Positions 1 through 64,000 of a stretch of 64,000 bases of DNA are shown piece by piece. Each line of letters opens with the position of its first letter. Positions within the stretch are counted from its first letter, which is position 1. The DNA comes from Mucilaginibacter sp. GTDB taxonomy: Bacteria > Bacteroidota > Bacteroidia > Sphingobacteriales > Sphingobacteriaceae. Below the pieces are notes generated by a model. That model saw nothing but the letters and a program-made list of their open reading frames with translations, had not been told where the DNA came from and searched no databases. The stretch is taken from contig NZ_JBGCVY010000049.1 in assembly GCF_041088075.1 (NCBI RefSeq), positions 25,203 to 89,202 on the forward strand, written 5' to 3'. Position numbers and translations under genes: made by a program.

Positions 1-51
1 TGCCCATAAATTCTATTTTTGATATTGTACCGGTGCAAGCAAACAAAATGG

Positions 52-106
52 CACTGATTTTTAGGTGGTAAAAGAAGCATGGAATAAATTGGACAAAATT
101 TAAACA
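52..106. repeat. Family-1 right half (R-arm plus outer TTTAAACA box); the left half lies beyond the window edge
   Basis: CACTGATTTTTAGGTGGTAAAAGAAGCAT at 52-80 and TTTAAACA at 99-106. Confidence 0.8.
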
Positions 107-207
107 GTTGTACCGAAATATTAATTAAAAACCCGAGTTTAGACAGCTAACATATTTGCTACAAACCAAACTCCGCTTGCGCTCACATAAACCACATATA
201 AAATTAC

Positions 208-1020
208 ATGTCCGATCCTAAAAACCTTTTCTTCGATCACGCCACTACCATCCAGGTTACTTTGTTTGCCGTATTGCTAAGTTCTATCTGGGTGGCCGAA
301 GTGGTGTTTTGCGTAGATAAACTGGCAGTAAAATGGAAACATTCGGCCACTAACTTTTTGTTTATGTTCAGCGTGCTGCCGGTCCAGCTTTTGTTAACCT
401 TTTTTGTGGTTGCCATTTCTAATTGGGCCGGCCTACATCATTGGGGCATGCTTTCGTTTTTACCGCACCACAAACACGTCATCCTGTTCTATGTGTTGTC
501 TTTTTTATTGCTTGATTTTTTTGAATACGTCTATCATGTCGTGATGCACAAAGCCGGCCTGCTTTGGAAATTCCATTTGGTACACCATACCGATTTAGAT
601 ATTGATGTTTCTACTACCGTAAGGGAGCATCCGGGCGAGACTTTTGTGCGGGTTTGTTTTTTAATGGTTTGGGTATTTATCAGCGGTGCATCGGTAGGCG
701 TGCTTATTGTACGGCAAACCGTCCAAAGCGTGGCCAATATTTTTGCACATTCAAAAATAAGGTTGCCCTATAAAACAGAAAAACTCATCGGTACTGTTTT
801 TATCACCCCAAATTTGCACCATGTACACCACCATTACCAGCTTCCTTATACCGACAGCAATTATGGCGATGTGCTAAGTATTTGGGACAGGCTGTTCGGA
901 ACGTTCAGGCAATTAAACACAAACGATACCGTGTTTGGTTTGGATACCCACTTTGACCAGGCTACATGCGGCAGTTTTGCCAATGCAATTAAAATACCTT
1001 TTGCCCGTTTTAAAAAGTAG
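208..1020 (+). CDS. Fatty acid hydroxylase / sterol desaturase superfamily membrane protein
   Basis: 270-aa ORF with N-terminal TM helices and three His boxes (HVVMH, HLVHH, HHVHHH) typical of di-iron FAH enzymes. Confidence 0.8.
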   Translation: MSDPKNLFFDHATTIQVTLFAVLLSSIWVAEVVFCVDKLAVKWKHSATNFLFMFSVLPVQLLLTFFVVAISNWAGLHHWGMLSFLPHHKHVILFYVLSFLLLDFFEYVYHVVMHKAGLLWKFHLVHHTDLDIDVSTTVREHPGETFVRVCFLMVWVFISGASVGVLIVRQTVQSVANIFAHSKIRLPYKTEKLIGTVFITPNLHHVHHHYQLPYTDSNYGDVLSIWDRLFGTFRQLNTNDTVFGLDTHFDQATCGSFANAIKIPFARFKK

Positions 1021-1079
1021 GTTTATCCAAACGGCGCTTTAAACATTGTCCTTAAAATTAAATCAGCTTAAACGGCCAA

Positions 1080-1102
1080 CTTTAACCTGATAAAAGAAGC
1101 AT
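1080..1102. repeat. Family-1 solo R-arm (degenerate tail)
   Basis: Exact core TAAAAGAAGCAT at 1091-1102, 29 nt upstream of the CDS start. Confidence 0.7.
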
Positions 1103-1131
1103 CCTGTTGCCAATACCTGACCGTACCTTTT

Positions 1132-2464: not shown

Positions 2465-2493
2465 TCCAAATTTTTACCTGGTAAAAGAAGCAT
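2465..2493. repeat. Family-1 R-arm abutting the response-regulator start
   Basis: CCAAATTTTTACCTGGTAAAAGAAGCAT; its last T is the first base of the TTG start. Confidence 0.8.
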
Positions 2494-4470: not shown

Positions 4471-4499
4471 ATGCTTCTTTTACCACTAAAAAATCATTG
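4471..4499. repeat. Family-1 L-arm
   Basis: ATGCTTCTTTTACCACTAAAAAATCATTG; a possible degenerate partner lies at about 4553-4571. Confidence 0.8.
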
Positions 4500-8987: not shown

Positions 8988-9077
8988 TTGTAAATGTTGT
9001 TTTGACAATCCTGTTGCCTTGTACTTTTTAATTTGTATTGATTTTATTATTCTAACTTGCATTAAAATTTCAGTACT

Positions 9078-9222
9078 TGTTTAAATATATTAGAGGAAAA
9101 ATTGCCAATGCTTCTTTTACCCTATAAAAATTGGTGCCTGCATCCATTTAAATAAAACGAATGTTTACCAGTTTTTAGGTGATAAAAGAAGCATGGATAT
9201 TTTATCAAGTAAATTTTAAACA
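9078..9222. repeat. Family-1 composite palindromic element (complete)
   Basis: TGTTTAAAT at 9078-9086, L-arm 9108-9136, loop, R-arm 9168-9194, TTTTAAACA at 9214-9222. Confidence 0.9.
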
Positions 9223-9248
9223 GGAACTTACAATTGTAAACTTAACCC

Positions 9249-9806
9249 ATGAAAAAAACGATAATTCCGCTGCTGCTTTTCACCATATTTTGCCTGGTAA
9301 AAGAAGCATCGGCACAAGCCGACAACCTTAAAATTGTATTTATCCGCCACGCCGAAAAACCTGCAAAAGGAGACAATTTAACCTGCCAGGGATTGAACCG
9401 CGCTTTGCAATTGCCAGAATTGATCCGCCGCAAGTTTGGCGTTCCAAACTTTCTTTTTGCTCCGGGTTTAGGTTTGGGCGAGGCAACCAAACATGCCCGT
9501 ATGTTCCAAACCATTGCCCCAATTGCAATCAAATATAATTTGCCTATCAACACCAGCCATGCCGAAAAAGATTCGATGTTGATTGCGCAAGATTTAAAAA
9601 GCCGGACAGGGACAATTATTGTTGTTTGGGAACATAAAGCCATTGCACCGATCGTCCGGTCTTTGGGTGTAACAGCATCAAATTTGATTTGGCCTGATGA
9701 CGATTATGACAGCATTTGGATTGTTGCTTTTGTAAACGGAAAAGCAGTTTTTTCAAAAGACCGGGAAGGCTTGCACCCCTCTGCTGATTGTAACTTTCAC
9801 CAATAG
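9249..9806 (+). CDS. Secreted histidine phosphatase (phosphoglycerate mutase-like) family protein
   Basis: RHAEK catalytic motif and a downstream WEH. The signal-peptide region is encoded by a full Family-1 R-arm (9281-9309). Confidence 0.7.
   Translation: MKKTIIPLLLFTIFCLVKEASAQADNLKIVFIRHAEKPAKGDNLTCQGLNRALQLPELIRRKFGVPNFLFAPGLGLGEATKHARMFQTIAPIAIKYNLPINTSHAEKDSMLIAQDLKSRTGTIIVVWEHKAIAPIVRSLGVTASNLIWPDDDYDSIWIVAFVNGKAVFSKDREGLHPSADCNFHQ
9281..9309. repeat. Family-1 R-arm inside a CDS (signal-peptide region)
   Basis: CACCATATTTTGCCTGGTAAAAGAAGCAT, encoding FTIFCLVKEAS. Confidence 0.8.
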
Positions 9807-9863
9807 TTGGCTTTCATCATCCAACACAGATAATTTTTTTCTATCAATCAAATAAAAAAAGCC

Positions 9864-10008
9864 TGTTTAAATCTGTGTTATAAAAATACACAATGCTTCT
9901 TTTATGCCTGTAAATTTAGTGCTTTGCATTACCACAAAAAATCACAATAGACCAATGATTTTTAGGCGGTAAAAGAAGCATGGAAAATAAACTGAAATAA
10001 ATTAAACC
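9864..10008. repeat. Family-1 composite element
   Basis: TGTTTAAAT at 9864-9872, L-arm 9893-9921, R-arm 9951-9981, degenerate outer box ATTAAACC. Confidence 0.85.
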
Positions 10009-10037
10009 AGATAGATATTTAAACTATTTTAACAAAT

Positions 10038-13495: not shown

Positions 13496-13666
13496 TGTTT
13501 AAATTTTTGTTCAACCTGTTTCCGATGCTTTTTTTATCGCTTAAAATTACGGTTAAGTTTTTCATGCTTCTTTTACCGGCATAAAATTAAACTGTAAATT
13601 GTTGCCCTAAAAGAAGCATGGCGGTCAATCATAAATTTGTTGAACATTCTGGTTCGAATTTAAACA
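13496..13666. repeat. Family-1 composite element with a duplicated L-arm
   Basis: Outer TGTTTAAAT, variant L core at 13525, exact L core at 13564, R core at 13608 and TTTAAACA at 13659-13666. Confidence 0.85.
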
Positions 13667-14910: not shown

Positions 14911-15035
14911 GGGGGTCAAAAGTACAAATCCCGGCGTAAACGGCAAATTTGAATGTTAAATTTTTATCATACTGTTTTTATCGGTGTAATCTGGTTAAAA
15001 TCAAGCATTTATTATCCAAAACAATTTTAGGGGCA

Positions 15036-15093
15036 TAAAAAAAGCATGTAAACTTAATGCCTACATGCTTCTTTTACCTGTGTAAAATTCGGT
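15036..15093. repeat. Family-1 compact tail-to-tail hairpin (R' then L)
   Basis: TAAAAAAAGCAT at 15036-15047 and ATGCTTCTTTTACCTGTGTAAAATTCGG from 15065. Confidence 0.75.
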
Positions 15094-17014: not shown

Positions 17015-17043
17015 ATGCTTCTTTTATCGGGTAAAAATTGGTG
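17015..17043. repeat. Family-1 L-arm (left half of the element that hosts the MIC insertion)
   Basis: ATGCTTCTTTTATCGGGTAAAAATTGGTG. Confidence 0.85.
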
Positions 17044-17101: not shown

Positions 17102-17152
17102 TAACTATATATGAGTTGGGATAAGATTTTTTTGATATTAAAAAAGCAGGTA

Positions 17153-19043: not shown

Positions 19044-19072
19044 ATGCTGTTTTTATGCCTGTTTTTTAGTTA
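19044..19072. repeat. Family-1 variant arm (core ATGCTGTTTTTA)
   Basis: Same 2-mismatch variant as at 21193 and 44549; lies 3 nt from the minus-strand ATG at 19040. Confidence 0.65.
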
Positions 19073-20059
19073 GTTGTTTACCATTTTCATCGCATCTTCG
19101 TAGTAGCGTTCGCCCACATGCGGATAGGTTTTCAATATTTCTTCAATTTCCTGCAAGTCATTTTTCGATAAATTGACATCGGCCGCACCGGCGTTTTCTT
19201 CTAAGTATTTTCGTTTTTTAGTTCCTGGGATTGGGATGATCTCTTCGCCTTGCGCCAAAACCCAGGCCAAAGCCAATTGTGCAGGCGTAATTTCTTTGGA
19301 AGCTGCAAACTCTTTTAAGGCCGAAGCCAGTTGCTGATTGTTCTTTAAATATTGTTCTTCTTTAAAACGCGGCAGGGTTTTGCGGAAATCGTTGTCTTTT
19401 AATTGATCGGCAGAAACAGAAGCGGCCGTAAACAAACCGCGCGAAAGCGGACTGAACGGAATAAAAGAAATCTTCAATTCCTGGCACAAAGGCAAAACCT
19501 CTTTCTCCGGATCCCGCGTAATAAAAGAATATTCGGACTGCAAAGCCGAAATCGGATGTTCTTTGTGTGCTTTTCGGATTGAGGCCGGAGAAGCTTCCGA
19601 CAAACCTAAAAAACGCACTTTGCCTTCTTTCACCAGTTCGCCCATCGCGCCAACGGTTTCCTCCACAGGAACGTTCGGGTCAACCCGGTGCGCGTAATAC
19701 AAGTCAATCACGTCAACGCCCAAACGTTTTAAACTGCCTTCGCAGGCCTTTTTTACATAAGCCGGAGAAGCATCGAAAATGTTTTTAGAACCATCGTCAG
19801 ATTTGCGGAAACCAAACTTGGTGGCAATAAAAACCTCTTTGCGGTTAGGCACCAGCACTTTGCTGATCAGTTCTTCGTTGGTATGCGGGCCGTAAACATC
19901 GGCCGTGTCCCAAAAGTTGATGCCCAGGTCAATCGCCATATTTAGCGTCGCGATGGATTCTTCATCATTCGTTTCGCCGTAGGCATGGCTCATGCCCATG
20001 CAGCCCAAACCAATAACGGACAGTTTTTCGTTGGTGTTGCCCAGTTTTCTATATTTCAT
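19070..20059 (-). CDS. Aldo/keto reductase
   Basis: 329 aa with AKR signatures ([27 protein letters not shown]). Confidence 0.9.
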
Positions 20060-20063
20060 GCCA

Positions 20064-20137
20064 ATGCTTCTTTTATACCTGCAAAACGCATAAGCGGCAA
20101 TGCTGTTTTATAATATTTATGCCGGTAAAAGAAGCAT
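20064..20137. repeat. Family-1 short composite (L-arm ... R-arm)
   Basis: Exact cores at 20064 and 20126. The L core lies 4 nt from the aldo/keto reductase start codon. Confidence 0.85.
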
Positions 20138-20178
20138 AAAAAAAGCGCTTCCGTTTGGTGGAAGCGCTGATGTTTTTT
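20137..20178 (-). terminator. Intrinsic terminator (hairpin with flanking A and T runs)
   Basis: Stem AGCGCTTCC / GGAAGCGCT with a 7-nt loop. The A-run on the plus strand reads as a T-run on the minus strand, downstream of CDS 20196-20432. Confidence 0.7.
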
Positions 20179-21175: not shown

Positions 21176-21204
21176 CACCAATTTTTACCCGATAAAAACA
21201 GCAT
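21176..21204. repeat. Family-1 variant solo R-arm
   Basis: CACCAATTTTTACCCGATAAAAACAGCAT. Confidence 0.7.
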
Positions 21205-22544: not shown

Positions 22545-22573
22545 ATGCTTCTTTTATCACCTATTTTTTTGTC
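22545..22573. repeat. Family-1 L-arm (degenerate tail)
   Basis: Exact core at 22545-22556. Confidence 0.7.
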
Positions 22574-24041: not shown

Positions 24042-24194
24042 TGTTTAAATTTCATCCAACGTATTTTCAATGCTTCTTTTACCACCTAAAAATCACTGTC
24101 TTTTTGTGGTTTTTGTACCGGGAAAATATCAAGACACCAAATTTATAGGCATAAAAGAAGCATTATAAATTTTTAAGATAGCAATTTAAACAAG
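24042..24194. repeat. Family-1 composite element (complete)
   Basis: TTGTTTAAAT outer box, L-arm 24070-24098, R-arm 24135-24163, TTTAAACA at about 24186-24193. An extra TTTGTTTAAA at 24009-24018 contains the MATE stop codon. Confidence 0.9.
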
Positions 24195-24197
24195 CTC

Positions 24198-24443
24198 TTA
24201 TTTAAATGCCAGTTTAATCCGGTTAGGAATGTTTGAGGAAAAAGTTTTGGCACGTCTCTTAATCTCCTCACGCCTTTTTTCCTGTTTAAAGTTTTCAACG
24301 CGGTCCACAACAGCTTCCCGTGTGGCTACATTGTATTTTACCATCGCCTGTTCAATCGAAACCAAACCAGCATTAATCTCTTTAACCATTTTTTTCATTT
24401 GATTTTCACGCATCAGCGTGGCCATCATATATAAATTTTGCAT
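24198..24443 (-). CDS. Hypothetical small protein
   Basis: 81-aa charged helical ORF; no family recognised. Confidence 0.35.
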   Translation of the reverse strand: MQNLYMMATLMRENQMKKMVKEINAGLVSIEQAMVKYNVATREAVVDRVENFKQEKRREEIKRRAKTFSSNIPNRIKLAFK

Positions 24444-24587: not shown

Positions 24588-25490
24588 CTAAAAATACAAA
24601 TCAATCGCCGTTTTATAGGTATTGCAGTGCGCATCCACAATATCTTTAATGTCTGCCGAATAACCGCCGCCCATGCTTACCTGCACAGGTATTTTATTTG
24701 CCTGACATAATTGCAGTACAAATTCATCGCGCGCTTTGCAGCCTTCTTTCGATAAAGCCAATTTCCCTAATTTGTCCGTCGCCAGTACGTCAACGCCAGC
24801 CAGGTAAAAAATAAAATCAGGTTTAGTTTGATCAATCAATTTTGGCAATGCTTCTTTTAGCAGCATAAAATAAGCGTCGTCGCCTATTCCATCCAACAAC
24901 GGAATGTCCAAATCAGAACGTTCTTTTCGGTACGGGAAATTGTTGGCGCCGTGCATCGAAAAAGTAAAAACTTTGGGTTGATGTTGAAATATTTCGGCCG
25001 TTCCGTTTCCCTGGTGCACATCCAAATCAACAATTAAAATCGAGTCTGCCAATGCTTCTTTTAGCAGGTAATTTGCAGCGATGGCCTGGTCATTCAGCAT
25101 ACAAAAACCTTCGCCCCAATTGCTGCCGGCATGGTGCGTGCCGCCGGCAACGTTAAAAGCGATACCATTTTCGAAAGCGAAATGACAGCCATCAATCGTC
25201 CCCTGTGCAATACGGATTTCGCGTTCTACCAATTGCGCCGATAAGGGGAAACCAATCCTTCGTTGTTCTTTTGCTGGTAACGTTAAATCGCGCAGTTGCT
25301 GCCAGTAATATGCATCATGTGTCCACAATATTTTTTCTTCGGAAATTGGTTTTGGGGAGAAAATATTTTCTGCCGAAATCACGCCTTCATGCAGCAATTG
25401 CGCCGGGATCAGTTCGTATTTCAGCATCGGGAAACGATGGCCAGGCGGCAAAGGGTGCGCGTAAATTGGATCGAAAGCGATTTTCAACAT
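24588..25490 (-). CDS. Histone deacetylase / acetoin-utilisation family deacetylase
   Basis: Motifs GGTHHAG and DLDVHQGNG; 300 aa. Confidence 0.9.
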   Translation of the reverse strand: MLKIAFDPIYAHPLPPGHRFPMLKYELIPAQLLHEGVISAENIFSPKPISEEKILWTHDAYYWQQLRDLTLPAKEQRRIGFPLSAQLVEREIRIAQGTIDGCHFAFENGIAFNVAGGTHHAGSNWGEGFCMLNDQAIAANYLLKEALADSILIVDLDVHQGNGTAEIFQHQPKVFTFSMHGANNFPYRKERSDLDIPLLDGIGDDAYFMLLKEALPKLIDQTKPDFIFYLAGVDVLATDKLGKLALSKEGCKARDEFVLQLCQANKIPVQVSMGGGYSADIKDIVDAHCNTYKTAIDLYF

Positions 25491-25781: not shown

Positions 25782-25810
25782 ATGCTTCTTTTACCACATA
25801 AAAAAAGGTG
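25782..25810. repeat. Family-1 L-arm fused to a terminator
   Basis: ATGCTTCTTTTACCACATAAAAAAAGGTG. Confidence 0.75.
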
Positions 25811-26407: not shown

Positions 26408-27010
26408 TTATCGGTTTGGTTTGCTCACGTAAGGGTTTCCCTTCACATAAAAACGATAAGGCAGCAGCGCATCTTCTTTGGCATAAGCCACGCCAACGCG
26501 TGGAACGGCAGCAATTTGTTCATTATTATAGATAAGTCCTCGGTCTTCGATCCAAATTTCTTCGCCCAAAAAACTAAAACCATTCATTTTTCGGGAAATA
26601 CCCAAAGCTTTGGCAACAGAACCCGGACCGGCCGTCAAATTATTTTTGACAGACGGCATATTCCTTCTTTCCAGCATCAATTCAATACCTTCGGTTGGGT
26701 TGATGGCACGGATCAAAACGGCGTGCGGTTCGCCTTCCACCGAAGTTACCACGTTCAGCATTTCGTGGATGCCATAGCACAAATAAACGTAAGCAATGCC
26801 GCCGTTTTCATACATCGTTTTGGTGCGGTTGGTTTTGCGGTTGCCAAAAGCATGCGAAGCTTTATCAACGATGCCTGCATAAGCTTCGGTTTCTACAATA
26901 AAACCACCGCTCACTTCGCCGTTAATGTTGGTGAACAAATATTTGCCCAGCAAATCACGTGCGATTTGTGATACTTCTTTTATCAAGTAAAAATCAGTGG
27001 GTAGTTTCAA
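26408..27010 (-). CDS. mpg: DNA-3-methyladenine glycosylase (Mpg/AAG family)
   Basis: Motifs IVETEAYAG, SHAF, YVYLCYGIH and VLIRA. Residues 4-14 are encoded by a Family-1 arm. Confidence 0.9.
   Translation of the reverse strand: MKLPTDFYLIKEVSQIARDLLGKYLFTNINGEVSGGFIVETEAYAGIVDKASHAFGNRKTNRTKTMYENGGIAYVYLCYGIHEMLNVVTSVEGEPHAVLIRAINPTEGIELMLERRNMPSVKNNLTAGPGSVAKALGISRKMNGFSFLGEEIWIEDRGLIYNNEQIAAVPRVGVAYAKEDALLPYRFYVKGNPYVSKPNR
26971..27001. repeat. Family-1 arm inside the mpg coding sequence
   Basis: ATACTTCTTTTATCAAGTAAAAATCAGTGGG; on the gene strand it encodes PTDFYLIKEV. Confidence 0.75.
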
Positions 27011-30444: not shown

Positions 30445-30761
30445 CGTTCTTTTTGCTTGATGAAAAAGAACCAAAAATTCAAGACAAACCCGATCCCTCC
30501 GGGCGTTTTGTCGGGCCTTTCCGCACCTGGGCGGAGACCTGCCGCTTTGGGATATCAGCGGTTATCGTGCGCTTGTTGAACAACCTTTTTAAATGCTTCT
30601 TTTACCGGTATAAATTTGGTGAGATGGAAAGTAGCTTGTTGTTTTTTAGAAACATGCAAGGCCGTTTGCAGATAGCCGCCCAGGAGCGTGGGGCTGAATG
30701 CCGCCCAGAGGCGATCGGCATTCTTGATTTTTTGGTTCTTTTTGATCAAGCAAAAAGAACG
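30445..30761. mobile_element. Foldback (MITE-like) element between proB and proA
   Basis: 40-bp terminal inverted repeats with 38/40 identity (30445-30484 and 30722-30761). Each arm is itself a hairpin (GTTCTTTTT...AAAAAGAAC), and the inverted similarity continues inward. A Family-1 L-arm sits at the centre. Confidence 0.55.
30593..30621. repeat. Family-1 L-arm at the centre of the foldback element
   Basis: ATGCTTCTTTTACCGGTATAAATTTGGTG. Confidence 0.85.
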
Positions 30762-38857: not shown

Positions 38858-38922
38858 CCCTCAGCTAAAGCCTCACCCAGAGAGAGGAATTAAGAAAACC
38901 TTAACTTTATCCTGTCAGAGCC

Positions 38923-39069
38923 TGTTTAAAATTTTCCAATTTATTTTCCATGCTTCTTTTACCCTATAAAAATTAGTAAATATTTGGTTTTTAGTTTATA
39001 AAAATTGATGCCGGCACCAATTTTTATAGGGTAAAAGAAGCATTGGCATTTTTCATATAAATTTAAACA
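38923..39069. repeat. Family-1 composite element (complete)
   Basis: TGTTTAAAA outer box, L-arm 38950-38978, R-arm 39015-39043, TTTAAACA at 39062-39069. Confidence 0.9.
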
Positions 39070-39105
39070 AGCTCTTAATATTCATTCCCAAACCAATACT
39101 TGCCC

Positions 39106-39627: not shown

Positions 39628-39890
39628 GTTGATTTGTTTTTGATGCTTCTTTTATCGCATAAAAATCATTGTCTGGTATTTTCCAATAATGTTTTGGCTA
39701 AAGCCATTCGCCGATCTGCTTTAACCACGGCCTCAAGCCATGGCAATTGAAGTTTCTGAAGTTTTAGGTTGAATTGTTTTTGATGCTTCTTTTATCGCAT
39801 AAAAACATTGGCTGTATTTGCAAAAATGTTTTGGCTAAAGCCATTTGCCGGTCTGCTTTAACCACGGCCTAAAGGCCATGGCAATTGTAG
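39612..39890. repeat. Tandem direct duplication (2 x about 140 bp); each copy carries a Family-1 L-arm and a Family-4 half
   Basis: Copy 1 is 39612-39751 and copy 2 is 39752-39890. Copy 1 starts inside the last 16 nt of CDS 39106-39627. Confidence 0.8.
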
Positions 39891-40025: not shown

Positions 40026-40715
40026 CTACTTCCCATTAATCAATTTTGCCACTACAAATGCCGCCGCCGCTGCCAGCGCGCCAATCACCACCACTTTTAT
40101 AGCTCCAGAAAACGGTGCCTGTCCGGTAACTTTACTTTTAAAATACCCAAAAACAAACAGGCAAAGCACCGTTACCGCACACGAATAATACAACGCCACG
40201 CCGGATTCAGCAATAAAAAAATAAGGCGACAAAGGAATAATGCCACCGGCGATGTAAGACAAACCGATGGTTAAAGCACTCTGCGAGGCGCGGTTAGCTT
40301 CCGGTTTTTCCAGGCCCAATTCGTAACGCATCATAAAATCTACCCATTTATCGGTGTCTTTTGCCATTTCATCGGCCACCTCGTTTTGCAATTGCGGCGA
40401 TAAACCAAAACCGGCAAATACTTCTTTTACCTCTGTTTTTTCCTGCTCGGGCACACGGGCAACTTCGTCGTATTCGCGTTGCAGTTCCGATGCGTAATGG
40501 TCGGCTTCTGTTTTTCCGGCCAAAAATCCGCCCAAACCCATCGCGATAGAACCGGCCACAATTTCGGCAATGCCAGCGGTGATGATAATGCTGGATGAAT
40601 TGACCGCGCCGCTTAAACCGGCAGCCAAAGCAAACGGAACGGTTAAACCATCCGACATACCGATCACAATATCCCGAATGGTATCCGAACTGCGCAAATG
40701 ATGTTCGTGGTGCAT
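40026..40715 (-). CDS. VIT1/CCC1 family iron/manganese transporter
   Basis: Motifs IVIGMSDGLTVPFAL and 5 TM helices. Confidence 0.8.
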   Translation of the reverse strand: MHHEHHLRSSDTIRDIVIGMSDGLTVPFALAAGLSGAVNSSSIIITAGIAEIVAGSIAMGLGGFLAGKTEADHYASELQREYDEVARVPEQEKTEVKEVFAGFGLSPQLQNEVADEMAKDTDKWVDFMMRYELGLEKPEANRASQSALTIGLSYIAGGIIPLSPYFFIAESGVALYYSCAVTVLCLFVFGYFKSKVTGQAPFSGAIKVVVIGALAAAAAFVVAKLINGK

Positions 40716-44548: not shown

Positions 44549-44580
44549 ATGCTGTTTTTATCGGTATAAAATTGGTATTG
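44549..44580. repeat. Family-1 variant arm abutting a start codon
   Basis: ATGCTGTTTTTATCGGTATAAAATTGGTATTG, 4 nt from the minus-strand ATG at 44544. Confidence 0.7.
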
Positions 44581-46115: not shown

Positions 46116-46218
46116 GACCTTTTATACCATCAATTGGTGTAGCTATCTAAAAAGAAAAATGGCCGAAAAAGTTTTGATACTTATCGGCCATGCTTCTTTT
46201 ATCGGTATAAATTACATT
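46116..46218. repeat. Two tandem Family-1 L-arms
   Basis: A degenerate arm ending CAATTGGTG at 46139, and an exact core at 46190-46201. Confidence 0.7.
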
Positions 46219-46493: not shown

Positions 46494-46649
46494 GTTGTTT
46501 TGGTTTTTAGTTTGCCTAATATACGTTTTTAATTGTTCGTTTGTGCATCACAAAAAATATCAATACTGTTTTTACCAGGTAATTTTTGGTGAAGCAATAC
46601 CTCAGCGTTTTACAAGTTTTAAAGGAATGCGTATCATTGCAAAAAATCA

Positions 46650-46837: not shown

Positions 46838-46866
46838 CACCAATTTTACAGGCATAAAAGAAGCAT
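46838..46866. repeat. Family-1 solo R-arm
   Basis: CACCAATTTTACAGGCATAAAAGAAGCAT. Confidence 0.85.
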
Positions 46867-51479: not shown

Positions 51480-52985
51480 ATGGAACAAAAGGCTGTAAAA
51501 CTGAATGTTGAAAATTTATCATCGCTGCCAAAAGCAGTAAAAGTTCCGGGATACGACCGGTCTAAAATAAAAACCGGGATTGTACATGTGGGCATCGGCG
51601 GTTTCCATCGGGCGCACCAGGCTTTTTACACCGACCAGTTATTGGAACTTGGCGTAACCGATTGGGGGATTTGCGGCATCGCTTTGTTGCAGCACGACAA
51701 AAAAATTTACGATACGCTGGTTGGGCAGAACGGGTTGTACACACTAATGATTACGGAAGCCGACGGCACCAGGACTGCGCGGGTGATCGGCTCAGTTACT
51801 GAATATTTGTTTGCGCCGGAAAACCCAAATGCCGTGATCGAAAAAATGGCGCACCCGGATACAAAGATCATCACGCTGACCATTACCGAAGGCGGCTATA
51901 ATTTCAATCCCGCCACCGGAAAGTTTATGGCCGATAACCCTGCCATCCAAACCGATCTAAAAAACCCGGACCGCCCTGCTACCATTTTTGGCTATCTTGC
52001 CCAAGCCTTGAAACGGCGCAAACAACGCGGTTTACAAGGCATTACCTTGCAATCCTGCGACAACATTCAGCAAAACGGAGCCGTGGCCAAAGAAATGCTT
52101 TTGGCTTATATTGCTTTGGCCGAGCCGGAATTATTGAACTGGGTGAACGAAAATGTTTCTTTTCCGAATGCCATGGTTGACCGCATTACACCGGTAACTT
52201 CTCCCGAAGCCATCGCCGAGCTTCAGGATCAGTTTCAGGTTGAGGATGCCTGGCCGGTGGTGTGCGAGCCTTTTTGCCAATGGATTATAGAAGATGATTT
52301 TGTAAACGGCAGGCCGGATTGGAACTTGGTTGGCGCGCAGTTTGTAAAAGATGTACACCCTTACGAAAAAATGAAGATCAGGTTGGTGAACGGCGGCCAC
52401 GTTGCCTTGGGTTTTACCGGTTTTTTAAACGGTTATCATTTTGTTGATGAAACCATGGCCGACCCTTTGTTTTTTAATTTTGTACATGATTTTTTGGATC
52501 AGGAAGTAACGCCGATTTTGGATGAGGTTCCGGGAATTGACATAAAAGCCTACAAAAAAATTTTGATGCAGCGTTTTGCAAACCCTTATATCAAAGATCA
52601 GCTTGCCCGCATTTTTTCGGAAAGCTCGGCCAAAATCCCTAAGTTTTTGTTGCCAACCATCCAGGAACAATTGGCCAAAGGCGTTACTTTAAAAAAGGCT
52701 GCTTTGATACTGGCGGCCTGGTGCCATTACCTGGAAATAGCCGGGCTTCCGGCCAATAATTTTGACGTGCAGGACGACATGAAAAAAACACTGGTAAAAG
52801 AAGCATCGGCATCTGTACAAGAAGATCCGCTTGCTTTCCTAAAAATAAAACCCATTTTTGGAGATCTGGCAGCATCGGAAAATTTTTCGGCGCAATATCT
52901 TTTCTTTTTAAATATAATACGAAAAGAAGGTATTGCAAAAGCCATCAGCGGGATTGATGGGGAAAAACAGGTTACGGCAAACTAA
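51480..52985 (+). CDS. Mannitol dehydrogenase family oxidoreductase (mannitol/fructuronate/arabinitol type)
   Basis: N-terminal GIVHVGIGGFHRAHQAFY; about 500 aa. Confidence 0.85.
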   Translation: MEQKAVKLNVENLSSLPKAVKVPGYDRSKIKTGIVHVGIGGFHRAHQAFYTDQLLELGVTDWGICGIALLQHDKKIYDTLVGQNGLYTLMITEADGTRTARVIGSVTEYLFAPENPNAVIEKMAHPDTKIITLTITEGGYNFNPATGKFMADNPAIQTDLKNPDRPATIFGYLAQALKRRKQRGLQGITLQSCDNIQQNGAVAKEMLLAYIALAEPELLNWVNENVSFPNAMVDRITPVTSPEAIAELQDQFQVEDAWPVVCEPFCQWIIEDDFVNGRPDWNLVGAQFVKDVHPYEKMKIRLVNGGHVALGFTGFLNGYHFVDETMADPLFFNFVHDFLDQEVTPILDEVPGIDIKAYKKILMQRFANPYIKDQLARIFSESSAKIPKFLLPTIQEQLAKGVTLKKAALILAAWCHYLEIAGLPANNFDVQDDMKKTLVKEASASVQEDPLAFLKIKPIFGDLAASENFSAQYLFFLNIIRKEGIAKAISGIDGEKQVTAN

Positions 52986-52989
52986 GGGC

Positions 52990-53141
52990 CTTTTTAAATT
53001 TATACGAGAAAGAATAATGATGCTTCTTTTACCCTATAAAAATTGGTGTACGCATCAATCTAAATAAACCAGAATTGAATGTTTACGGTTTTTTAGGCGA
53101 TAAAAGAAGCATCGGAAAATATATTAAACAAAATTTAAACA
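52990..53141. repeat. Family-1 composite element (complete)
   Basis: L-arm 53020-53048, R-arm 53085-53112 and TTTAAACA at 53134-53141. The loop is homologous to the loop of the 9078-9222 copy. Confidence 0.9.
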
Positions 53142-53216
53142 GGGTTTAAATCAAGCAGCTTATCTTTATCAAAAACAAGAAATTTAGCTTTTAATTTACG
53201 CTTCCGAAATAAAAAA

Positions 53217-54273: not shown

Positions 54274-54474
54274 ATGCTTCTTTTATCGTATAAAAATTGG
54301 TGCCCGTATCAATTCTTATAAACCAAAACCAAAGGTTCACCAATTTTTAGGTGGTAAAAGAAGCATCGCAAATAAGTTCAACAGAATTTAAACAAGCTCC
54401 AAATGTTCACCAATTTTTATAGGGTAAAAGAAGCATCGCAAATAACTTCAACAAAATTTAAACAAGCTTTTCTA
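54274..54474. repeat. Family-1 composite element with a tandemly duplicated right half
   Basis: L-arm 54274-54302; R-arms 54338-54366 and 54408-54436; 70-bp units at 54335-54404 and 54405-54474. Confidence 0.9.
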
Positions 54475-56805: not shown

Positions 56806-56844
56806 GCAATAGGTAAGATAAAAGTTGCGAAACCGATATTGATT

Positions 56845-57008
56845 TGTTTAAACTTTTTTTCCAGCCCTCTTTTTTTGGGCTGATGCTTCTTTTACCCTAT
56901 AAAAATTGGTGCCTGTATCGGCCTAAACAAATTAAAAACCGGGCAATGCCAATTTTTTAGGCGATAAAAGAAGCATGGTGCAAAGCATAAAAGAATAAGT
57001 TTAAACAA
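56845..57008. repeat. Family-1 composite element (complete)
   Basis: TGTTTAAAC at 56845-56853, L-arm 56884-56912, R-arm 56949-56977, GTTTAAACA at 57000-57008. Confidence 0.9.
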
Positions 57009-57040
57009 CTTCATTGCTAAATTGCAATATCAATAAAAAC

Positions 57041-58935: not shown

Positions 58936-58944
58936 AAATATCAC

Positions 58945-59817: not shown

Positions 59818-59853
59818 GTATAATTTATTAAAGGTGGAAACAAAATTGCAGTC

Positions 59854-60030
59854 TGTTTAAAAATGTCATATCCAAGAGCGTGTTTAAAAATCATCCTGTT
59901 GATTTTCTATACTTCTTTTACCGGCTTAAAATCACGAAAGCTTTATCCTTTCTATGATTTCATCTCAGGCAAAAACAAAAATCACCAGCATAAAAGAAGC
60001 AATATCAATTTTGAAATACAAATCTAAACA
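59854..60030. repeat. Family-1 composite element (diverged cores, duplicated outer box)
   Basis: TGTTTAAAAATG at 59854 and TGTTTAAAAATC at 59881; ATACTTCTTTTA at 59909; TAAAAGAAGCAA at 59991; outer box TCTAAACA. Confidence 0.75.
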
Positions 60031-60132
60031 GGCGCTAATGTATATATGCTTAATTAAAATTTTGAAAGATGTATTTCAGTGCAAAAAACCTAATTTGGCC
60101 CGAAGATACTTAATAGAGTAGTACCCTAAAAA

Positions 60133-61542: not shown

Positions 61543-62221
61543 AAACCTGATCCGAAAGCTAAAAAACAACCCGGACTACAAATGGGAAAGCGAATATTCC
61601 TTCCGGGATTTGATGGGCATCACCGGCGTTCGTTTGGTGCAGCTTGCACGGGGGTTGTTGCTGAAGCCTTTTTTAAAGCAATCGTCCGGGTTTGTTTTTT
61701 TGGGAAATAATGTAAAAGTTCGCCATGCTTATCAGTTAAGTGCCGGAAAAAATTTGATTTTGGAAGACAACGTAAGCATCAATGCACTTTCTGCAAACGG
61801 GATTGTTTTGGGCGATGATGTTTCTATCGCACGCGATGGTATTTTGTTTTGTACCGGAATTATCGCCCAAAAAGGAACCGGAATTACGATCGGAAACCGA
61901 ACCGGGATCAGCGCGCGGGTTTATCTGGCCGGACAAGGCGGGATCACGATTGGCAATGATGTTATTTTTGGGCCAAACGTGCAGGTGTTTTCAGAAAACC
62001 ATAATTATGCCGATCAGGAAAAAACGATCAAAGAACAAGGTGTTGCCAAAAACCCAGTGTTTATTGGCAACAATTGCTGGATTGGCGCCGGGGCAACTAT
62101 TTTGGCAGGCGTAATTATTGGCGATGGCTGTGTGGTTGCGGCCGGAAGCGTAGTTACCAAATCCGTTCCGGCAAATTCGATTGTGGCTGGCGTTCCGGCA
62201 AAAATATTAAAGGAAAGATAA
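61532..62221 (+). CDS. Hexapeptide-repeat (left-handed beta-helix) acyltransferase
   Basis: Repeats [31 protein letters not shown]. Confidence 0.8.
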
Positions 62222-62239
62222 AAACATTTGGGTTGATCA

Positions 62240-62326
62240 ATGCTTCTTTTACCACCTAAAAATTAGTGTGATCGAAAGATATTTTCCAAATTGAACACAC
62301 CAAAATTATACCGATAAAAGAAGCAT
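62240..62326. repeat. Family-1 short composite (no outer boxes seen)
   Basis: L-arm 62240-62268 and R-arm 62298-62326. Confidence 0.85.
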
Positions 62327-62364
62327 TCCATGAAATTGGCTCAACTTCTATTCAAAATAAAACC

Positions 62365-63495
62365 ATGCGCAAACCGCTAACCATTGGTGTAGATATCCGC
62401 GATTTGCGTGTGGCCAAAACCGGCACCAAAACTTACCTGGAAGAGTTGTGCAAAGCGTTTAAGCAGATGGATCAGTCGAATATTTGCTTTCATTTTTTAG
62501 ATACCAGCCTTCCCATTTACACCGGCAACAACAAAATTTTAAAATGGATTGAGCATTTTAAATATCAGCTTTGGAAGCAACTGGTTTTGCCGCTGAAAGC
62601 TTTTTTTAAAAACTGCGATGTGGTTTTTTGCACCGATAATTTTGTCCCGTTTATCCATTTGGGCTATCAAACCGTTCCTGTTTTTCATGATGCCTTCTTC
62701 TTTGAAAACCCCGAAAACTACGGCAAGTTGTGGTTGTGGCTGTATAAAAAAATGGCAATCCCGGCAGCAAAAAGGGCGGCATTTATAATTACGCCGACTG
62801 AATATGCCAAACAACAAATCCATCGTTTCACACAAATCCCAAACGAAAAACTGGTGGTGGTTTATGAAGGCCCGAAATCTTTAAACGAAACCAAAAGCAA
62901 CAATCAACCCGAACAATTGCTCAAAGCCTTTTCGATATTGCCTTTGCAGTACATCTTACACGTAGGTTCGATGTTTAAACGGAAAAATATTCCAACCTTG
63001 ATTACTGCTTTTGCCAAGGTAAAAAAAGCCGGGTTTGAACATTTGAAATTGGTTTTGGCCGGGCCAATTCCTCCGGCTGCAAATGAAACAGATTATAAAT
63101 TGATTTTGGAGGCCATCAAAAAAAACCAGCTTCAAAACGAGGTTGTCCTGACAGGATATTTGCCGGATACCGCTTTAAGCCAGCTTTATCAAAACGCTTT
63201 GCTGTACGTTTTCCCTTCGGTGAACGAAGGTTTCGGGATACCGGTTTTAGAAGCTTTTGCACACAATATTCCCGTTTTGGTTGCCAACAACACCTGCCTG
63301 CCCGAAGTTGGCGGCGATGCCGTTTTGCAATTTGACCCTTTTGATACCGATGCTGTTTTTACCGCCATAAAAACAGTATTGGAAGATGCGGAACTTAGAA
63401 AAGAAATGATCCGGAAAGGGCAAATACGTTTACAGAGGTTTTCCTGGGAAAAAACAGCCCGGCAAATTGTTGAAGTATTCAAAAAAGCGGTTTAG
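62365..63495 (+). CDS. Glycosyltransferase family 4 (GT-B)
   Basis: Motif FPSVNEGFGIPVLEAF (E-x7-E). Confidence 0.85.
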   Translation: MRKPLTIGVDIRDLRVAKTGTKTYLEELCKAFKQMDQSNICFHFLDTSLPIYTGNNKILKWIEHFKYQLWKQLVLPLKAFFKNCDVVFCTDNFVPFIHLGYQTVPVFHDAFFFENPENYGKLWLWLYKKMAIPAAKRAAFIITPTEYAKQQIHRFTQIPNEKLVVVYEGPKSLNETKSNNQPEQLLKAFSILPLQYILHVGSMFKRKNIPTLITAFAKVKKAGFEHLKLVLAGPIPPAANETDYKLILEAIKKNQLQNEVVLTGYLPDTALSQLYQNALLYVFPSVNEGFGIPVLEAFAHNIPVLVANNTCLPEVGGDAVLQFDPFDTDAVFTAIKTVLEDAELRKEMIRKGQIRLQRFSWEKTARQIVEVFKKAV

Positions 63496-63503
63496 CTAAA
63501 ACC

Positions 63504-64000
63504 TTAATAAGCACCTTTTAAAGCACTAAACTGTTTCAAAGTGTCGTGGTTTATTTTTTCCCTGCCGCGGTCAAAAAACCAACCCCATTTATTAAAATAG
63601 TAAATGGCCGACTTTAAATAGATTTTAAATATTTTAAAATCTACAAAAGATTTTCTTTCATGGTCATGGTACACCGATACGCTTGGAAAAAACATACACC
63701 GGTAGCCCAAATCTATGATCCTTCGGCAGATATCAATATCTTCGGTGTACATAAAAATATTTTCGTCAAAAGCGCCAATCTTTAACAAGGCACTTGTACG
63801 AAATATGATAAAACAACCGGAAAGGAAAGGAACATTAAACGACCGGTTATAACCCGATTTCCGTAACTCAAAACGGTTATCAATTTTATTTCTGATAAAA
63901 TCAAAAGGTATAAACCTACGCACAATAAAATCTAAAGGCGTAGGCAAAAGTTTTGCTAAATATTGTGTCCTGCCGTCCGGATATAAAATTTTGGGCATTA
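63504..64000 (-). CDS. Glycosyltransferase family 2, C-terminal part (runs off the window)
   Basis: YTEDIDICRR-type motif; the N-terminus lies beyond position 64000. Confidence 0.65.
   Translation of the reverse strand, partial: MPKILYPDGRTQYLAKLLPTPLDFIVRRFIPFDFIRNKIDNRFELRKSGYNRSFNVPFLSGCFIIFRTSALLKIGAFDENIFMYTEDIDICRRIIDLGYRCMFFPSVSVYHDHERKSFVDFKIFKIYLKSAIYYFNKWGWFFDRGREKINHDTLKQFSALKGAY

Follow-up and report, generated by a model that had tools for sequence, protein, structure and literature searches.

The window, by which we mean the whole 64,000-nucleotide stretch of Mucilaginibacter DNA analysed here, holds among other genes htpG, proB, proA, dapB, parA and parB, and it is strewn with one short word. 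An exact search finds ATGCTTCTTTTA 49 times, 27 times on the plus strand and 22 times on the minus strand, where 0.02 copies are expected and where none of 100 dinucleotide-preserving shuffles contains more than one. The hyper-abundance and the near-equal orientations reported by an earlier, sequence-only reading thus hold, as do its exact start positions, except for two that need shifting by one position (56884 becomes 56883 and 56966 becomes 56965). The edges of the word are sharp, with 49 copies of the 12-mer against 26 and 13 for the best 14-mers. Sequence logos confirm its place at the core of a 29-bp arm, ATGCTTCTTTTA-YC-N3-TAAAAATTGGTG, in which YC and three free bases are followed by an A- or T-tract of 5-6 bp.

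The window also contains 16 one-mismatch copies, among them all fifteen listed before (the one placed at 40428 lies at 40418) and an extra one at 3406. The variant ATGCTGTTTTTA had been taken for a decayed copy; its reported starts at 19044, 21193 and 44549 are right and three more lie at 31694, 36623 and 63350, but it represents a second permitted spelling of the word. The degenerate form is AT[GA]CT(TC/GT)TTTTA, then YC-N3, then an A- or T-tract, and this context is common to all four allowed forms, while sequences midway between the TC and GT cores are less frequent than either of them. Together the four forms amount to 66 copies in the window and 635 in 642 kb, or about one word per kb.

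Many copies sit in pairs, and the expectation that arms pair within an element of about 150 bp was borne out by full elements of about 150-165 bp. The sites in the window are given below, with L numbers for relatives.

9072..9229, full palindromic element of about 165 bp, 12-mers at 9108(+) and 9183(-); nhmmer model 3-164, E=1e-35; long hairpin fold, z=-3.9/-4.9
9859..10010, full element, diverged, 12-mers at 9893(+) and 9970(-); nhmmer model 5-160, E=9e-17
24042..24199, full element, 12-mers at 24070(+) and 24152(-); missing at the orthologous site of L026
38916..39076, full element, 12-mers at 38950(+) and 39032(-); nhmmer E=2.5e-38; flanks TCA/TTA; empty site in L071
44097..44276, full element, 12-mers at 44132(+) and 44214(-); nhmmer E=6e-33
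52984..53147, full element matching the model, 12-mers at 53020(+) and 53101(-); target duplication TAA/TAA
54239..54400, full element, 12-mers at 54274(+) and 54355(-); nhmmer E=5e-38
54400..54470, half element abutting the previous one, 12-mer at 54425(-); nhmmer model 95-165, E=1.5e-11
56844..57012, full element, 12-mers at 56883(+) and 56965(-); nhmmer E=2e-32
59875..60037, degenerate full element, one-mismatch words at 59909(+) ATACTTCTTTTA and 59991(-) TTGCTTCTTTTA; nhmmer E=6e-12
15..107, partial element (one arm plus centre) from the model search, 12-mer at 69(-)

These elements are copies of a MITE: a palindromic transposable element of the DDE type, old and non-autonomous, about 165 bp long. 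Its consensus, from the alignment and the model, reads TAAGGGCCTGTTTAAATTTATACAAGAAAAAATGCTA-ATGCTTCTTTTA-CCCTA-TAAAAATTGGTG ... CCAATTTTTA-GGTGA-TAAAAGAAGCAT-GGAAAATAAATT...TTTAAACAGGCTCTAA, so that each element holds the 29-bp arm twice, in opposite orientations. The MITE ends in terminal inverted repeats, GAGCCTGTTTAAA, and is flanked by a target duplication of 3 bp, TAA/TTA, which matches in 11 of 14 clear cases. One relative (L071) preserves an empty site, seen on alignment with the 38916..39076 locus, and two non-orthologous copies in one genome are 94.7% identical. Mobilisation by a RAYT or IS200/IS605 enzyme, as had been suggested, does not fit, because terminal inverted repeats with a 3-bp target duplication are the behaviour of a DDE transposase; RAYT-type mobilisation leaves no target duplication. 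A Pfam scan of about 60 ORFs agrees with the sequence-only reading that the window encodes no transposase or RAYT domain, and across 642 kb we found neither a transposase nor a multi-copy ORF.

The word is nevertheless more than a piece of this element, as which it had been described: only 148 of 433 exact copies (34%) lie in full MITEs, and 134 (31%) have no MITE similarity beyond the word itself. The intergenic sites of the window outside the MITEs, paired and solitary, are as follows; the four inverted pairs lack MITE ends.

13564..13619, inverted word pair 44 bp apart; one-mismatch copy at 13525
20046..20143, inverted pair, 20064(+) and 20126(-); kept in L060 but missing from L026; 4 nt separate the end of the 20064 word from an aldo-keto reductase start codon
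47275..47407, inverted pair with long centre, 47280(+) and 47377(-); listed with it, a solitary arm at 47504(-)
62228..62329, inverted pair, 62240(+) and 62315(-)
15036..15076, back-to-back pair TAAAAAAAGCAT-N17-ATGCTTCTTTTA directly after the HtpG stop codon
38216..38253, back-to-back pair upstream of parA, 38216(-) with one mismatch and 38242(+); both exact in L071
1091..1102, minus, solitary word (exact search)
2482..2493, minus, solitary word with arm, adjoining the 5' side of a likely TTG start of a response-regulator gene
4471..4482, plus, solitary arm (exact search)
14969..14980, plus, solitary variant ATACTGTTTTTA
17015..17043, plus, solitary 29-bp arm; word kept at the orthologous site of L060 and L026, flanks differ
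19044..19055, plus, solitary variant ATGCTGTTTTTA with T-tract
21193..21204, minus, solitary variant ATGCTGTTTTTA with full second box TAAAAATTGGTG
22545..22556, plus, solitary word with T-tract; the L026 orthologue is ATGCTCCTTTTA
25782..25793, plus, solitary arm
30593..30604, plus, solitary arm between proB and proA
32472..32483, minus, solitary variant ATACTGTTTTTA
39643..39654, plus, solitary arm 16 nt 3' of the FMN-reductase stop, kept in L071; second copy at 39783-39794 from a 140-bp tandem duplication
44549..44560, plus, solitary variant ATGCTGTTTTTA with arm
46190..46201, plus, solitary word
46563..46574, plus, solitary variant ATACTGTTTTTA
46855..46866, minus, solitary arm downstream of tRNA-Lys

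Conservation of the two words reaches 98-99% in 35 MITEs that the search pattern had not selected, against 70-73% for the terminal repeats and 63% for the remainder. Orthologous sites tell the same story, with 96.4% identity in the core and 79.9% in the flanks; 19 sites are shared, while 5 carry substitutions and 11 fall in indels, and orthologous sites swap between allowed forms through substitution. In all nine related Mucilaginibacter/Sphingobacteriaceae species-level assemblies ATGCTTCTTTTA is the commonest 12-mer once runs of N are left out, tied with ATACTTCTTTTA in two, and this excludes a local duplication artefact; densities are also high in the relatives, although biased upward since their loci were selected for containing the 29-bp pattern. 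Nor is it an already catalogued repeat: Rfam has no family matching word or element, the word was not found in the literature searched, and the view that it is not REP/BIME, ERIC or Correia stands. It is absent from viral contigs and plasmids.

Outside long ORFs, where about 80% of exact copies are found, the density is about 2.6 per kb; deep within genes the exact word reaches 0.11 per kb and the whole family 0.27 per kb. Yet, by crude ORF calls, genes contain 18 of the window's 66 family copies.

9298..9309, minus, copy in the signal-peptide region of a 185-aa protein (..CLVKEASAQ..); kept in L066
22956..22967, plus, variant ATACTGTTTTTA in a MatE transporter gene
24848..24859, plus, copy in an HDAC-like gene (MLLKEALPK), gapless against PDB homologues; kept in L026
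25052..25063, plus, another copy in that HDAC-like gene (YLLKEALAD), again without gaps against PDB homologues; the L026 orthologue is ATGCTGTTTTTA
26971..26982, plus, variant ATACTTCTTTTA 28 nt into the annotated 5' end of an MPG glycosylase ORF
28290..28301, plus, copy in a DUF3291 gene (..DASFTG*), 8 nt 5' of the stop
29646..29657, plus, variant ATACTTCTTTTA in proB
31325..31336, plus, copy in proA (GTDASFTNV), gapless against PDB 8zok (GGKETCRTN)
31694..31705, minus, variant ATGCTGTTTTTA in proA
33852..33863, minus, copy near the 3' end of a signal peptidase I gene (DENASFMHK)
35216..35227, plus, copy in dapB (MPVKEAWVN), ungapped at the copy against PDB homologues; kept in L071
36420..36431, minus, variant ATACTTCTTTTA 15 nt inside a DUF5683 ORF; same in L071
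36623..36634, plus, variant ATGCTGTTTTTA in parB
40418..40429, plus, variant ATACTTCTTTTA in a VIT1 gene; same in L071
50468..50479, minus, copy 79 nt into an annotated ABC-permease ORF, possibly just 5' of the true start
52795..52806, minus, copy in the variable C-terminal part of mannitol dehydrogenase (TLVKEASAS)
63350..63379, inverted variant pair ATGCTGTTTTTA-ccgcca-TAAAAACAGTAT in a GT4 glycosyltransferase gene

How did the word come to lie within conserved genes? In the four copies checked against solved homologues (two in the HDAC-like gene, one each in ProA and DapB) residues are replaced and no length is added. Deep in ORFs of at least 150 aa there are 55 exact copies, and 45 of them keep to a single frame in each orientation. 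From the peptides and codon usage 1.4 copies are expected and 49 are seen, an excess of about 35-fold, and exactly ATGCTTCTTTTA encodes xKEAx in 24 of 27 compatible peptides and xASFx in 15 of 16. If only CDS sequence is considered, the four word forms are the four commonest distinct 12-mers, the other top entries being overlapping shifts. The ATGCTGTTTTTA core, in the same context, is as common in genes as the main form but rare in MITEs. Genic copies also retain the YC and an AT tract (80-99% A/T), and since this tract is either an A-run or a T-run, what matters appears to be DNA shape rather than base pairing. As a pattern, then, the word is kept intact chromosome-wide and independently of the MITE by a force working directly on the nucleotide sequence, inside decaying MITEs as well as in solitary intergenic copies and in conserved genes. 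Two layers are thus superimposed, the MITE and a word maintained on its own.

One might suppose a purely selfish repeat, in which all copies descend from the MITE or a REP/REPIN-like element, transposed and then decayed, the 12-mer being a transposase-binding part with no host role. Such a history would suit the genuine MITE, with its target duplication, empty site and recent duplicate, and the predominance of copies outside long ORFs, and solitary arms could be deletion remnants. However, the checked genic copies arose by substitution, not insertion, which largely refutes it, and we judge it distinctly improbable: genic copies are also frame-locked, the word outlasts the very terminal repeats that transposition requires, almost a third of copies share nothing else with the MITE, the ATGCTGTTTTTA core matches the main form in frequency within genes but is rare in MITEs, 642 kb yielded no transposase or multi-copy ORF, and the target duplication speaks against a REP/REPIN-like origin. 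Short-patch gene conversion, or very-short-patch-like repair, could instead turn near-matches into the word without any function, much as a methyltransferase link has been proposed for the cyanobacterial HIP1 palindrome. While the ratio of exact to one-mismatch copies (49 to 16), the switching of orthologous sites between allowed forms and the scarcity of TC/GT intermediates are all consistent with such a drive, conversion from MITE templates would copy the flanks and second box too, which genic copies lack, and we know of no repair system that recognises a 12-bp non-palindromic word plus an AT tract of either polarity; we regard it as rather improbable.

A signal in transcription or RNA (promoter, intrinsic terminator, small RNA or RNA-protein binding site) seems to us very improbable. 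Paired elements do fold as long hairpins (z from -3.9 to -7.3), several copies lie just 5' of start codons, '- +' word pairs peak at 20-29 bp spacing, and about a dozen back-to-back pairs form a GC-containing stem followed by a T run; the pair after htpG is terminator-like on both strands because its stem, GCATGT/ACATGC, precedes a T run. But orientation relative to genes shows no preference (91 anti, 73 same), convergent, divergent and tandem spacers have similar densities (3.7, 2.7 and 3.3 copies per kb), genic copies occur in both orientations, and Rfam gave no match. Inverted pairs mostly have the MITE arrangement, are not terminator-like, and are as frequent between divergent genes as elsewhere; a terminator scan stayed at background at the words and found the genome's ordinary terminators elsewhere. 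The word is also unlike the sigma-70 consensus and the Bacteroidota -7 consensus, TAnnTTTG. We give next to no credence to a Chi-like or KOPS/SRS-like polar word that organises the chromosome and is read by a translocase or helicase-nuclease: over-representation in coding and non-coding DNA would fit, but words of this kind strongly favour one strand in each replichore, and the lack of skew here (27:22 in the window, 167:173 among 340 solitary copies, with no over-dispersion among loci) refutes it. This strand neutrality, with similar densities across intergenic types, leads us to infer that the word is recognised as double-stranded DNA. An abundant intracellular host protein acting in nucleoid organisation, replication/repair or global regulation could do so, with ordinary selection keeping its sites and the MITE carrying or having captured two of them. 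Core conservation, the codon test, the architecture of word plus AT tract and strand neutrality support this as well as they support uptake, and ParAB is encoded in the window, yet parS differs in sequence. Sites for IHF, Fis, SlmA, Noc and MatP are degenerate or rare; we know of no nucleoid or regulatory protein that requires over 2000 12-bp sites in a genome, nearly all identical and some of them written into housekeeping genes, and per-copy selection strong enough for 96-99% identity is hard to envisage. We consider such a protein unlikely, though by no means negligible.

Our preferred reading, to which we would give somewhat less than an even chance, is that the word is a DNA-uptake or self-recognition sequence. 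The earlier statement that it is not a known USS/DUS is correct as to sequence, but its behaviour is USS/DUS-like, matching the signature of DUS in Neisseriaceae and USS in Pasteurellaceae. DUS and USS alike share its density and frame bias, and they too form inverted pairs and dialects (bioRxiv 10.1101/2025.10.24.684340). In those families inverted pairs lie mostly in terminators, whereas here they mostly follow the MITE, and the intergenic excess is greater here than is known for DUS or USS. The word would be bound by a DNA receptor belonging to the competence machinery, at the surface or in the periplasm, the AT tract helping the DNA to bend, and word-bearing fragments would be preferentially taken up and recombined. 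Over time such a bias could lead to about one word per kb wherever it is tolerated; in the checked genes it was written in by substitution, and it falls chiefly into the one or two reading frames whose peptides are tolerable ([LIV]KEA-x, [DN]ASF-x), and the two-tag MITE would be taken up along with the word. An abundant sequence-specific DNA-binding protein, or biased repair, would leave much the same footprint, and our literature search found no paper linking Mucilaginibacter to natural transformation. Competent Bacteroidota (Riemerella) do favour their own DNA, by a mechanism described as unknown (PMC7965970).

If uptake is indeed what maintains the word, Mucilaginibacter and its relatives would possess a self-tag in a phylum for which, to our knowledge, none is known, such tags otherwise coming from two proteobacterial families.

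In the window the 12-mer ATGCTTCTTTTA (reverse complement TAAAAGAAGCAT) occurs in 49 exact copies, 27 on the plus strand and 22 on the minus strand, and in dinucleotide-preserving shuffles of the window it appeared 0.02 times on average and never more than once. This bears out the hyper-abundance reported by the sequence-only reading, whose start positions were right apart from two that were off by one (really 56883 and 56965) and one typo (40418, not 40428). That reading gave at least 15 copies with one mismatch, of which we count 16, and it recognised the variant ATGCTGTTTTTA, although this form has six copies in the window rather than three. The word is sharply bounded, with the 12-mer occurring 49 times in the window and its best 14-mer extensions 26 and 13 times. 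It is also the core of a 29-bp arm, as had been proposed: after the word come YC, three free bases and then TAAAAATTGGTG.

More generally, the word is one of a family of four forms. The top 12-mers when only coding sequence is counted are ATGCTTCTTTTA (47 copies), ATGCTGTTTTTA (28), ATACTGTTTTTA (21) and ATACTTCTTTTA (11), the remaining high-ranking ones being overlapping shifts of these four. Over all our data, that is, the window plus 77 loci from related genomes (642 kb), the four forms number 433, 65, 75 and 62, giving a family total of 635. All four share the context YC-N3-AT-tract, and the TC and GT cores are both commoner than the single-step intermediates that link them. Of the 66 family copies in the window, 17 are in the palindromic MITE discussed below, 31 are otherwise intergenic and 18 lie in genes. 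The coding sequence of a GT4 glycosyltransferase contains, at 63350-63379, two variant words that together make a short perfect palindrome, ATGCTGTTTTTA-ccgcca-TAAAAACAGTAT. This arrangement suggests that the arm's second box, of the form TAAAAAT[TC][GA]GTG, is the word itself in degenerate, inverted form.

For the relatives, one genome per species was scanned with the 29-bp pattern, giving at least 77 loci, with nine assemblies among the matches listed. These matches come from MAGs of lichen-associated Sphingobacteriaceae/Mucilaginibacter, the cultured Mucilaginibacter arboris HMF7410 (WPIK01), a complete 3.70-Mb Mucilaginibacter MAG chromosome (NZ_OZ241747) and two MAGs labelled Janthinobacterium lividum; the best stretches orthologous to the window in the scanned genomes are 69-90% identical to it. 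In nine of the nine assemblies among the matches listed the word is the commonest 12-mer (runs of N excluded), and in two of them ATACTTCTTTTA ties with the main form. Its density there is 0.25-0.62 per kb with the seed matches removed, a range that is biased upward because the loci were picked for containing the pattern. Since the same word ranks first in all nine, it is a property of the lineage and not the artefact of a local duplication that the sequence-only reading had kept in view. Four loci in this set, L004 and L055 (JBPBQV01) and L008 and L029 (JBPBQN01), lie on 'Janthinobacterium lividum' MAG contigs of 39% G+C that carry both the Mucilaginibacter word and the MITE, and the taxonomic labels or the binning of the two MAGs are almost certainly wrong.

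Searches of catalogued material returned little. At gathering score Rfam identifies only two tRNAs over the whole window and has no match for the word, and under relaxed settings four elements gave best E-values of 0.17 and 0.57, to eukaryotic miRNA and snoRNA models. The word had 0 matches among viral contigs (scanned with a 22-nt pattern) and the MITE consensus none among plasmids; a literature search for the word and its complement as strings gave nothing but unrelated primers, and the literature searched for uptake sequences or repeats in Bacteroidetes or Mucilaginibacter yielded nothing relevant. Neither Rfam nor the searchable literature describes the independently maintained word, while the MITE itself is of an already known type.

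How much of this abundance is due to the MITE? Inverted word pairs, plus followed by minus, show a strong spacing peak at 70-89 bp, and 25 such pairs aligned with their flanks define an element of ~165 bp whose terminal inverted repeats, GAGCCTGTTTAAA...TTTAAACAGGCTC, are also those of the HMM consensus. Just beyond the ends, three bases are repeated directly (TAA...TAA or TTA...TTA) in 11 of the 14 clear cases, where an extension of the inverted repeat would give TAA...TTA, and hence we read them as a target-site duplication. Presence and absence differ between species: the copy at 38916-39076 is missing from the orthologous spacer in L071, a locus 90% identical in this region, where a single TTA is kept as an empty site; the copy at 24042-24199 is absent from L026, also orthologous to part of the window; and further copies are present in one species and absent in another. 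Recent copies exist as well, two non-orthologous ones in OZ241747 being 94.7% identical. The element of about 150 bp suspected earlier is therefore real, and its HMM detects nine full copies in the window along with half elements and pairs that lack the ends. The copies fold into long hairpins, as would be expected of any palindrome.

The element is thus a genuine non-autonomous DDE-type element, with terminal repeats and a duplication that seem to resemble those of the IS5/PIF-Harbinger type, and on its own it is an ordinary finding. Like the bacterial MITEs with TA or TAA duplications (IS5-family and IS630-type; Tourist-like, PIF/Harbinger; Correia of Neisseria), it is non-coding, has terminal inverted repeats and is present in dozens of copies. 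Unlike them, it is best conserved internally, in its two 12-mers, and not at its termini, and whereas the Correia element carries no DUS, this one carries two words. Among the 642 kb there is no autonomous partner, only 5 stray matches resembling its terminal repeats and no multi-copy ORF; no transposase or RAYT domain occurs in any of the roughly 60 window ORFs scanned, in agreement with the earlier reading. A RAYT (Y1) mobiliser, which that reading had suggested looking for, does not suit the data, since a target duplication is present and there is no Y1 transposase domain among the window ORFs.

The word is nevertheless preserved by something other than transposition. Among its 433 exact copies in the 642 kb, 148 lie in full MITEs, 62 in partial ones and 89 in arms only, while 134 have no similarity to the MITE beyond the word. 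Among 35 MITEs chosen independently of the search pattern, conservation is 98-99% for the two words, against 70-73% for the terminal repeats and 63% for the rest. Orthologous sites of the word tell the same story at the nucleotide level: 19 are shared, another 5 differ by substitutions alone and 11 fall in indels, and the core is 96.4% identical where the immediate flanks are 79.9% identical.

The copies inside genes bear most directly on how the word is maintained. We find 55 exact copies deep within ORFs of at least 150 aa, 45 of which use one frame per orientation, and the favoured frames read [LIV]KEA-x or [DN]ASF-x. Genes with family words in the window include parB, proA (two), proB, dapB and an HDAC-like gene (two). 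When compared with solved homologues, the two HDAC-like copies and the ProA copy align without gaps and the DapB copy has no gap at its position, so all four are substitutions; a copy in a mannitol dehydrogenase lies in a variable C-terminal stretch with a 4-residue indel. The homologue alignments, with no gap at the copy, rule out insertion in frame such as occurs with RPEs. From the codon usage of these genes and the peptides they encode, we would expect 1.4 in-gene copies and observe 49; of the peptides compatible with the word, 24 of 27 with the form xKEAx and 15 of 16 with the form xASFx are written with it exactly. This excess over codon usage indicates that the constraint acts on the DNA sequence and not on the protein, and a favoured KEA or ASF peptide as the cause is ruled out by the same test. 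Entry into coding sequence is thus substitutional and frame-biased, as it is for DUS and USS. In-gene copies also retain the YC and a tract of 5-6 bp that is 80-99% A/T, either an A-run or a T-run, and a tract of either polarity points to the shape or flexibility of the DNA, rather than to base pairing or base-specific contacts.

The orientations are equal, as had been noted, with 27:22 in the window and 167 of 340 solitary copies on the plus strand (over-dispersion of strand among loci, p=0.11). The word is recognised as double-stranded DNA, without polarity. About one copy per kb, far above chance, and equal orientations with no replichore skew are both features by which DUS and USS are known. 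The same strand neutrality rules out a polar word of the Chi or KOPS kind, for which a strong replication-linked skew would be expected. Between genes the word occurs at 3.7 copies per kb where they are convergent, 2.7 where divergent and 3.3 where tandem, and its orientation relative to the neighbouring gene is even (91 vs 73). A promoter is excluded, there being no match to a sigma-70 or Bacteroidota -33/-7 consensus, no gene-directed orientation and the highest density between convergent genes. A role as general terminator fails because the density is equal between divergent genes and a terminator scan stays at background. Inverted word pairs are very common; most are in the MITE arrangement, they are equally frequent between divergent genes, and the terminator scan misses them. 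About a dozen back-to-back pairs (TAAAAGAAGCAT-N14-17-ATGCTTCTTTTA) do resemble bidirectional terminators, for example at 15036-15076 after htpG. Strong conventional intrinsic terminators at 14762-14803 and 17143-17173, with stems of 19 and 13 bp and T runs, carry no copy of the word, indicating that termination in this genome does not depend on it.

Other readings of the word can be set aside more briefly. A small peptide (ATG CTT CTT TTA, MLLL...) is inconsistent with the frames and with the stop codons after the spacer, an integron array of the attC/VCR kind is inconsistent with neighbours that are syntenic housekeeping genes, and a resemblance of the second box to an IHF site, judged by eye, is unconvincing. 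Words at 2482-2493, 20064-20075, 50468-50479 and 36420-36431 (in TAAAAGAAGCAT orientation) end 0-15 nt upstream of likely starts, those of genes for a response regulator, an aldo-keto reductase, an ABC permease and a DUF5683 protein. In a phylum that makes no use of Shine-Dalgarno sequences, an A-rich word so placed might influence translation initiation.

The window is ordinary Bacteroidota chromosome, with genes for a SusC-like TonB-dependent receptor, HtpG, ProB, ProA, signal peptidase I, DapB, ParA, ParB, an ABC sugar transporter and a polysaccharide-synthesis cluster. No replication origin or terminus is evident in it, and the cumulative GC skew falls steadily with no switch. Several local features stand out:

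32137-33807: 1.7 kb between proA and the signal-peptidase gene, holding only small ORFs without Pfam matches; zero copies of the main word and one of ATACTGTTTTTA, where other spacers have ~3 copies per kb
36448-38171: parA-parB operon, with family words at 36623 (inside parB) and at 38216/38242 (upstream of parA)
39612-39890: tandem duplication of ~140 bp, with the last 16 nt of an FMN-reductase gene, one arm (39643, 39783) and a hairpin; in L071 the corresponding orthologous region carries this unit once
39693-39706, 39830-39843 and 39964-39977: TTTGGCTAAAGCCA, a second small palindromic repeat, unrelated to the word; 3 copies vs 0.07 expected
39858-39950: 28-nt inverted repeat TTAACCACGGCCTAAAGGCCATGGCAAT, accompanying TTTGGCTAAAGCCA; a similar TTTTGGCTAAAGCCAA adjoins a MITE in L038, a locus from a related assembly
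56965-62240: polysaccharide-synthesis cluster of low GC (36-39%), with no exact copy of the word over 5.3 kb and one degenerate MITE (59875-60037)

The spacer at 32137-33807 may be recently acquired or degenerating DNA, and the 5.3-kb gap would fit a depletion of the word in horizontally acquired DNA. TTTGGCTAAAGCCA and TTAACCACGGCCTAAAGGCCATGGCAAT may represent another short repeat family of the clade.

Which known system does the word most resemble? Like the DUS of Neisseriaceae (10-12-mers, for example AT-DUS ATGCCGTCTGAA), it is a 12-bp word at about one per kb in equal orientations, with many intergenic inverted pairs, few in-gene frames and a core much better conserved than its surroundings; it is also shared by at least nine related assemblies, with variant forms that may correspond to dialects. 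Density, orientation, pairs, frames and dialects are described features of DUS, and Neisseriaceae, with DUS, and Pasteurellaceae, with USS, are the only two families known to have such sequences (bioRxiv 10.1101/2025.10.24.684340). Unlike DUS, the word belongs to another phylum and is unrelated in sequence, most of its pairs lie in a MITE and not in terminators, and it requires a flanking AT tract. In the USS of Pasteurellaceae a 9-mer core, AAGTGCGGT, has flanking AT-rich tracts: here too a core is followed by a helically placed AT-rich tract of no fixed sequence, and the match extends to density, strand neutrality and frame-biased coding copies that arise by substitution. Unlike USS, the word has one clear AT tract only and a much lower in-gene fraction, that of Haemophilus USS being about two thirds, and its intergenic excess is stronger than in either DUS or USS.

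Other abundant repeats share fewer of these features. REP/REPIN sequences, mobilised by RAYT, are likewise abundant, mostly intergenic and arranged in inverted doublets that form hairpins, but here the units are not short palindromes, have no GTAG-type head, occur in genes and come with a target duplication. The earlier judgement that this is not REP/BIME therefore stands, since 18 of the window's 66 family copies lie in genes, so that the family is not strictly extragenic, and the arm is no stable palindrome. HIP1 of cyanobacteria (GCGATCGC) is likewise hyper-abundant both within and outside coding sequence; its orthologous sites are conserved, and it too is maintained at the nucleotide level. 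However, it is an 8-bp palindrome, with proposed methyltransferase links, whereas the present word is a non-palindromic 12-mer with a flanking AT tract. The palindromic elements of Rickettsia (RPE) also occur within protein-coding genes, but they insert whole and in frame, adding residues, whereas the in-gene copies checked here replace residues and leave protein length unchanged.

Thus the signature to be explained is a 12-bp word at about one per kb with a nearly invariant core and an AT tract, frequently in intergenic inverted pairs, entering genes by substitution in a few tolerated frames, and shared in variant forms by at least nine related assemblies. From this comparison with known systems, the most likely mechanism appears to be a DNA uptake or self-recognition tag, partly amplified by a MITE with two tags, though we would lean on it with slightly less than even confidence. 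We infer that the maintaining force would then be biased uptake with subsequent recombination. Much the same footprint would come from an abundant intracellular DNA-binding protein, which we consider unlikely as the cause. A similar footprint is also to be expected of a biased conversion or repair process, which seems to us distinctly improbable. We rate a purely selfish MITE or REP slightly lower still, as an explanation that cannot account for the in-gene substitutional copies or for the conservation profile.

If the uptake tag is the correct explanation, the chromosome of a lichen- and soil-associated Mucilaginibacter clade would be marked at intervals of about 1 kb by AT[GA]CT(TC|GT)TTTTA and an AT tract, tagged DNA would be taken up preferentially through a receptor unrelated to ComP, the DUS receptor in Neisseria, or to ComN, the one predicted in Pasteurellaceae, and the MITE would have spread by carrying two tags. 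We propose only tentatively, and as something we would sooner doubt than assert, that this is the first DNA uptake or self-recognition sequence outside the Proteobacteria, with such an unrelated receptor and with a MITE that spread via its two tags. Among the window ORFs there is no competence or pilin domain, and the literature searched holds no link between Mucilaginibacter and natural competence. Two members of the same phylum, Riemerella anatipestifer and R. columbina, have natural competence and show an unexplained preference for their own DNA (PMC7965970). This self-preference makes sequence-selective uptake in Bacteroidota plausible, if undescribed.

To our knowledge, only two families, both proteobacterial, have sequence-specific DNA uptake, the classic example of molecular drive in which recombination machinery shapes the genome that encodes it. 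Were there a third and independent case in another phylum, the same solution would have evolved more than once, and a new receptor would be expected; such a case would also provide a candidate mechanism for the self-DNA preference measured in Riemerella, and a tag added to donor DNA would be a practical handle for manipulating Mucilaginibacter and its relatives. Because M. arboris HMF7410 is a cultured carrier of the word, the hypothesis is directly testable. Whether or not uptake is involved, the persistence of a 12-bp word at 96-99% identity, even in housekeeping genes where codon usage disfavours it, amounts to a strong, unexplained constraint on genome sequence.
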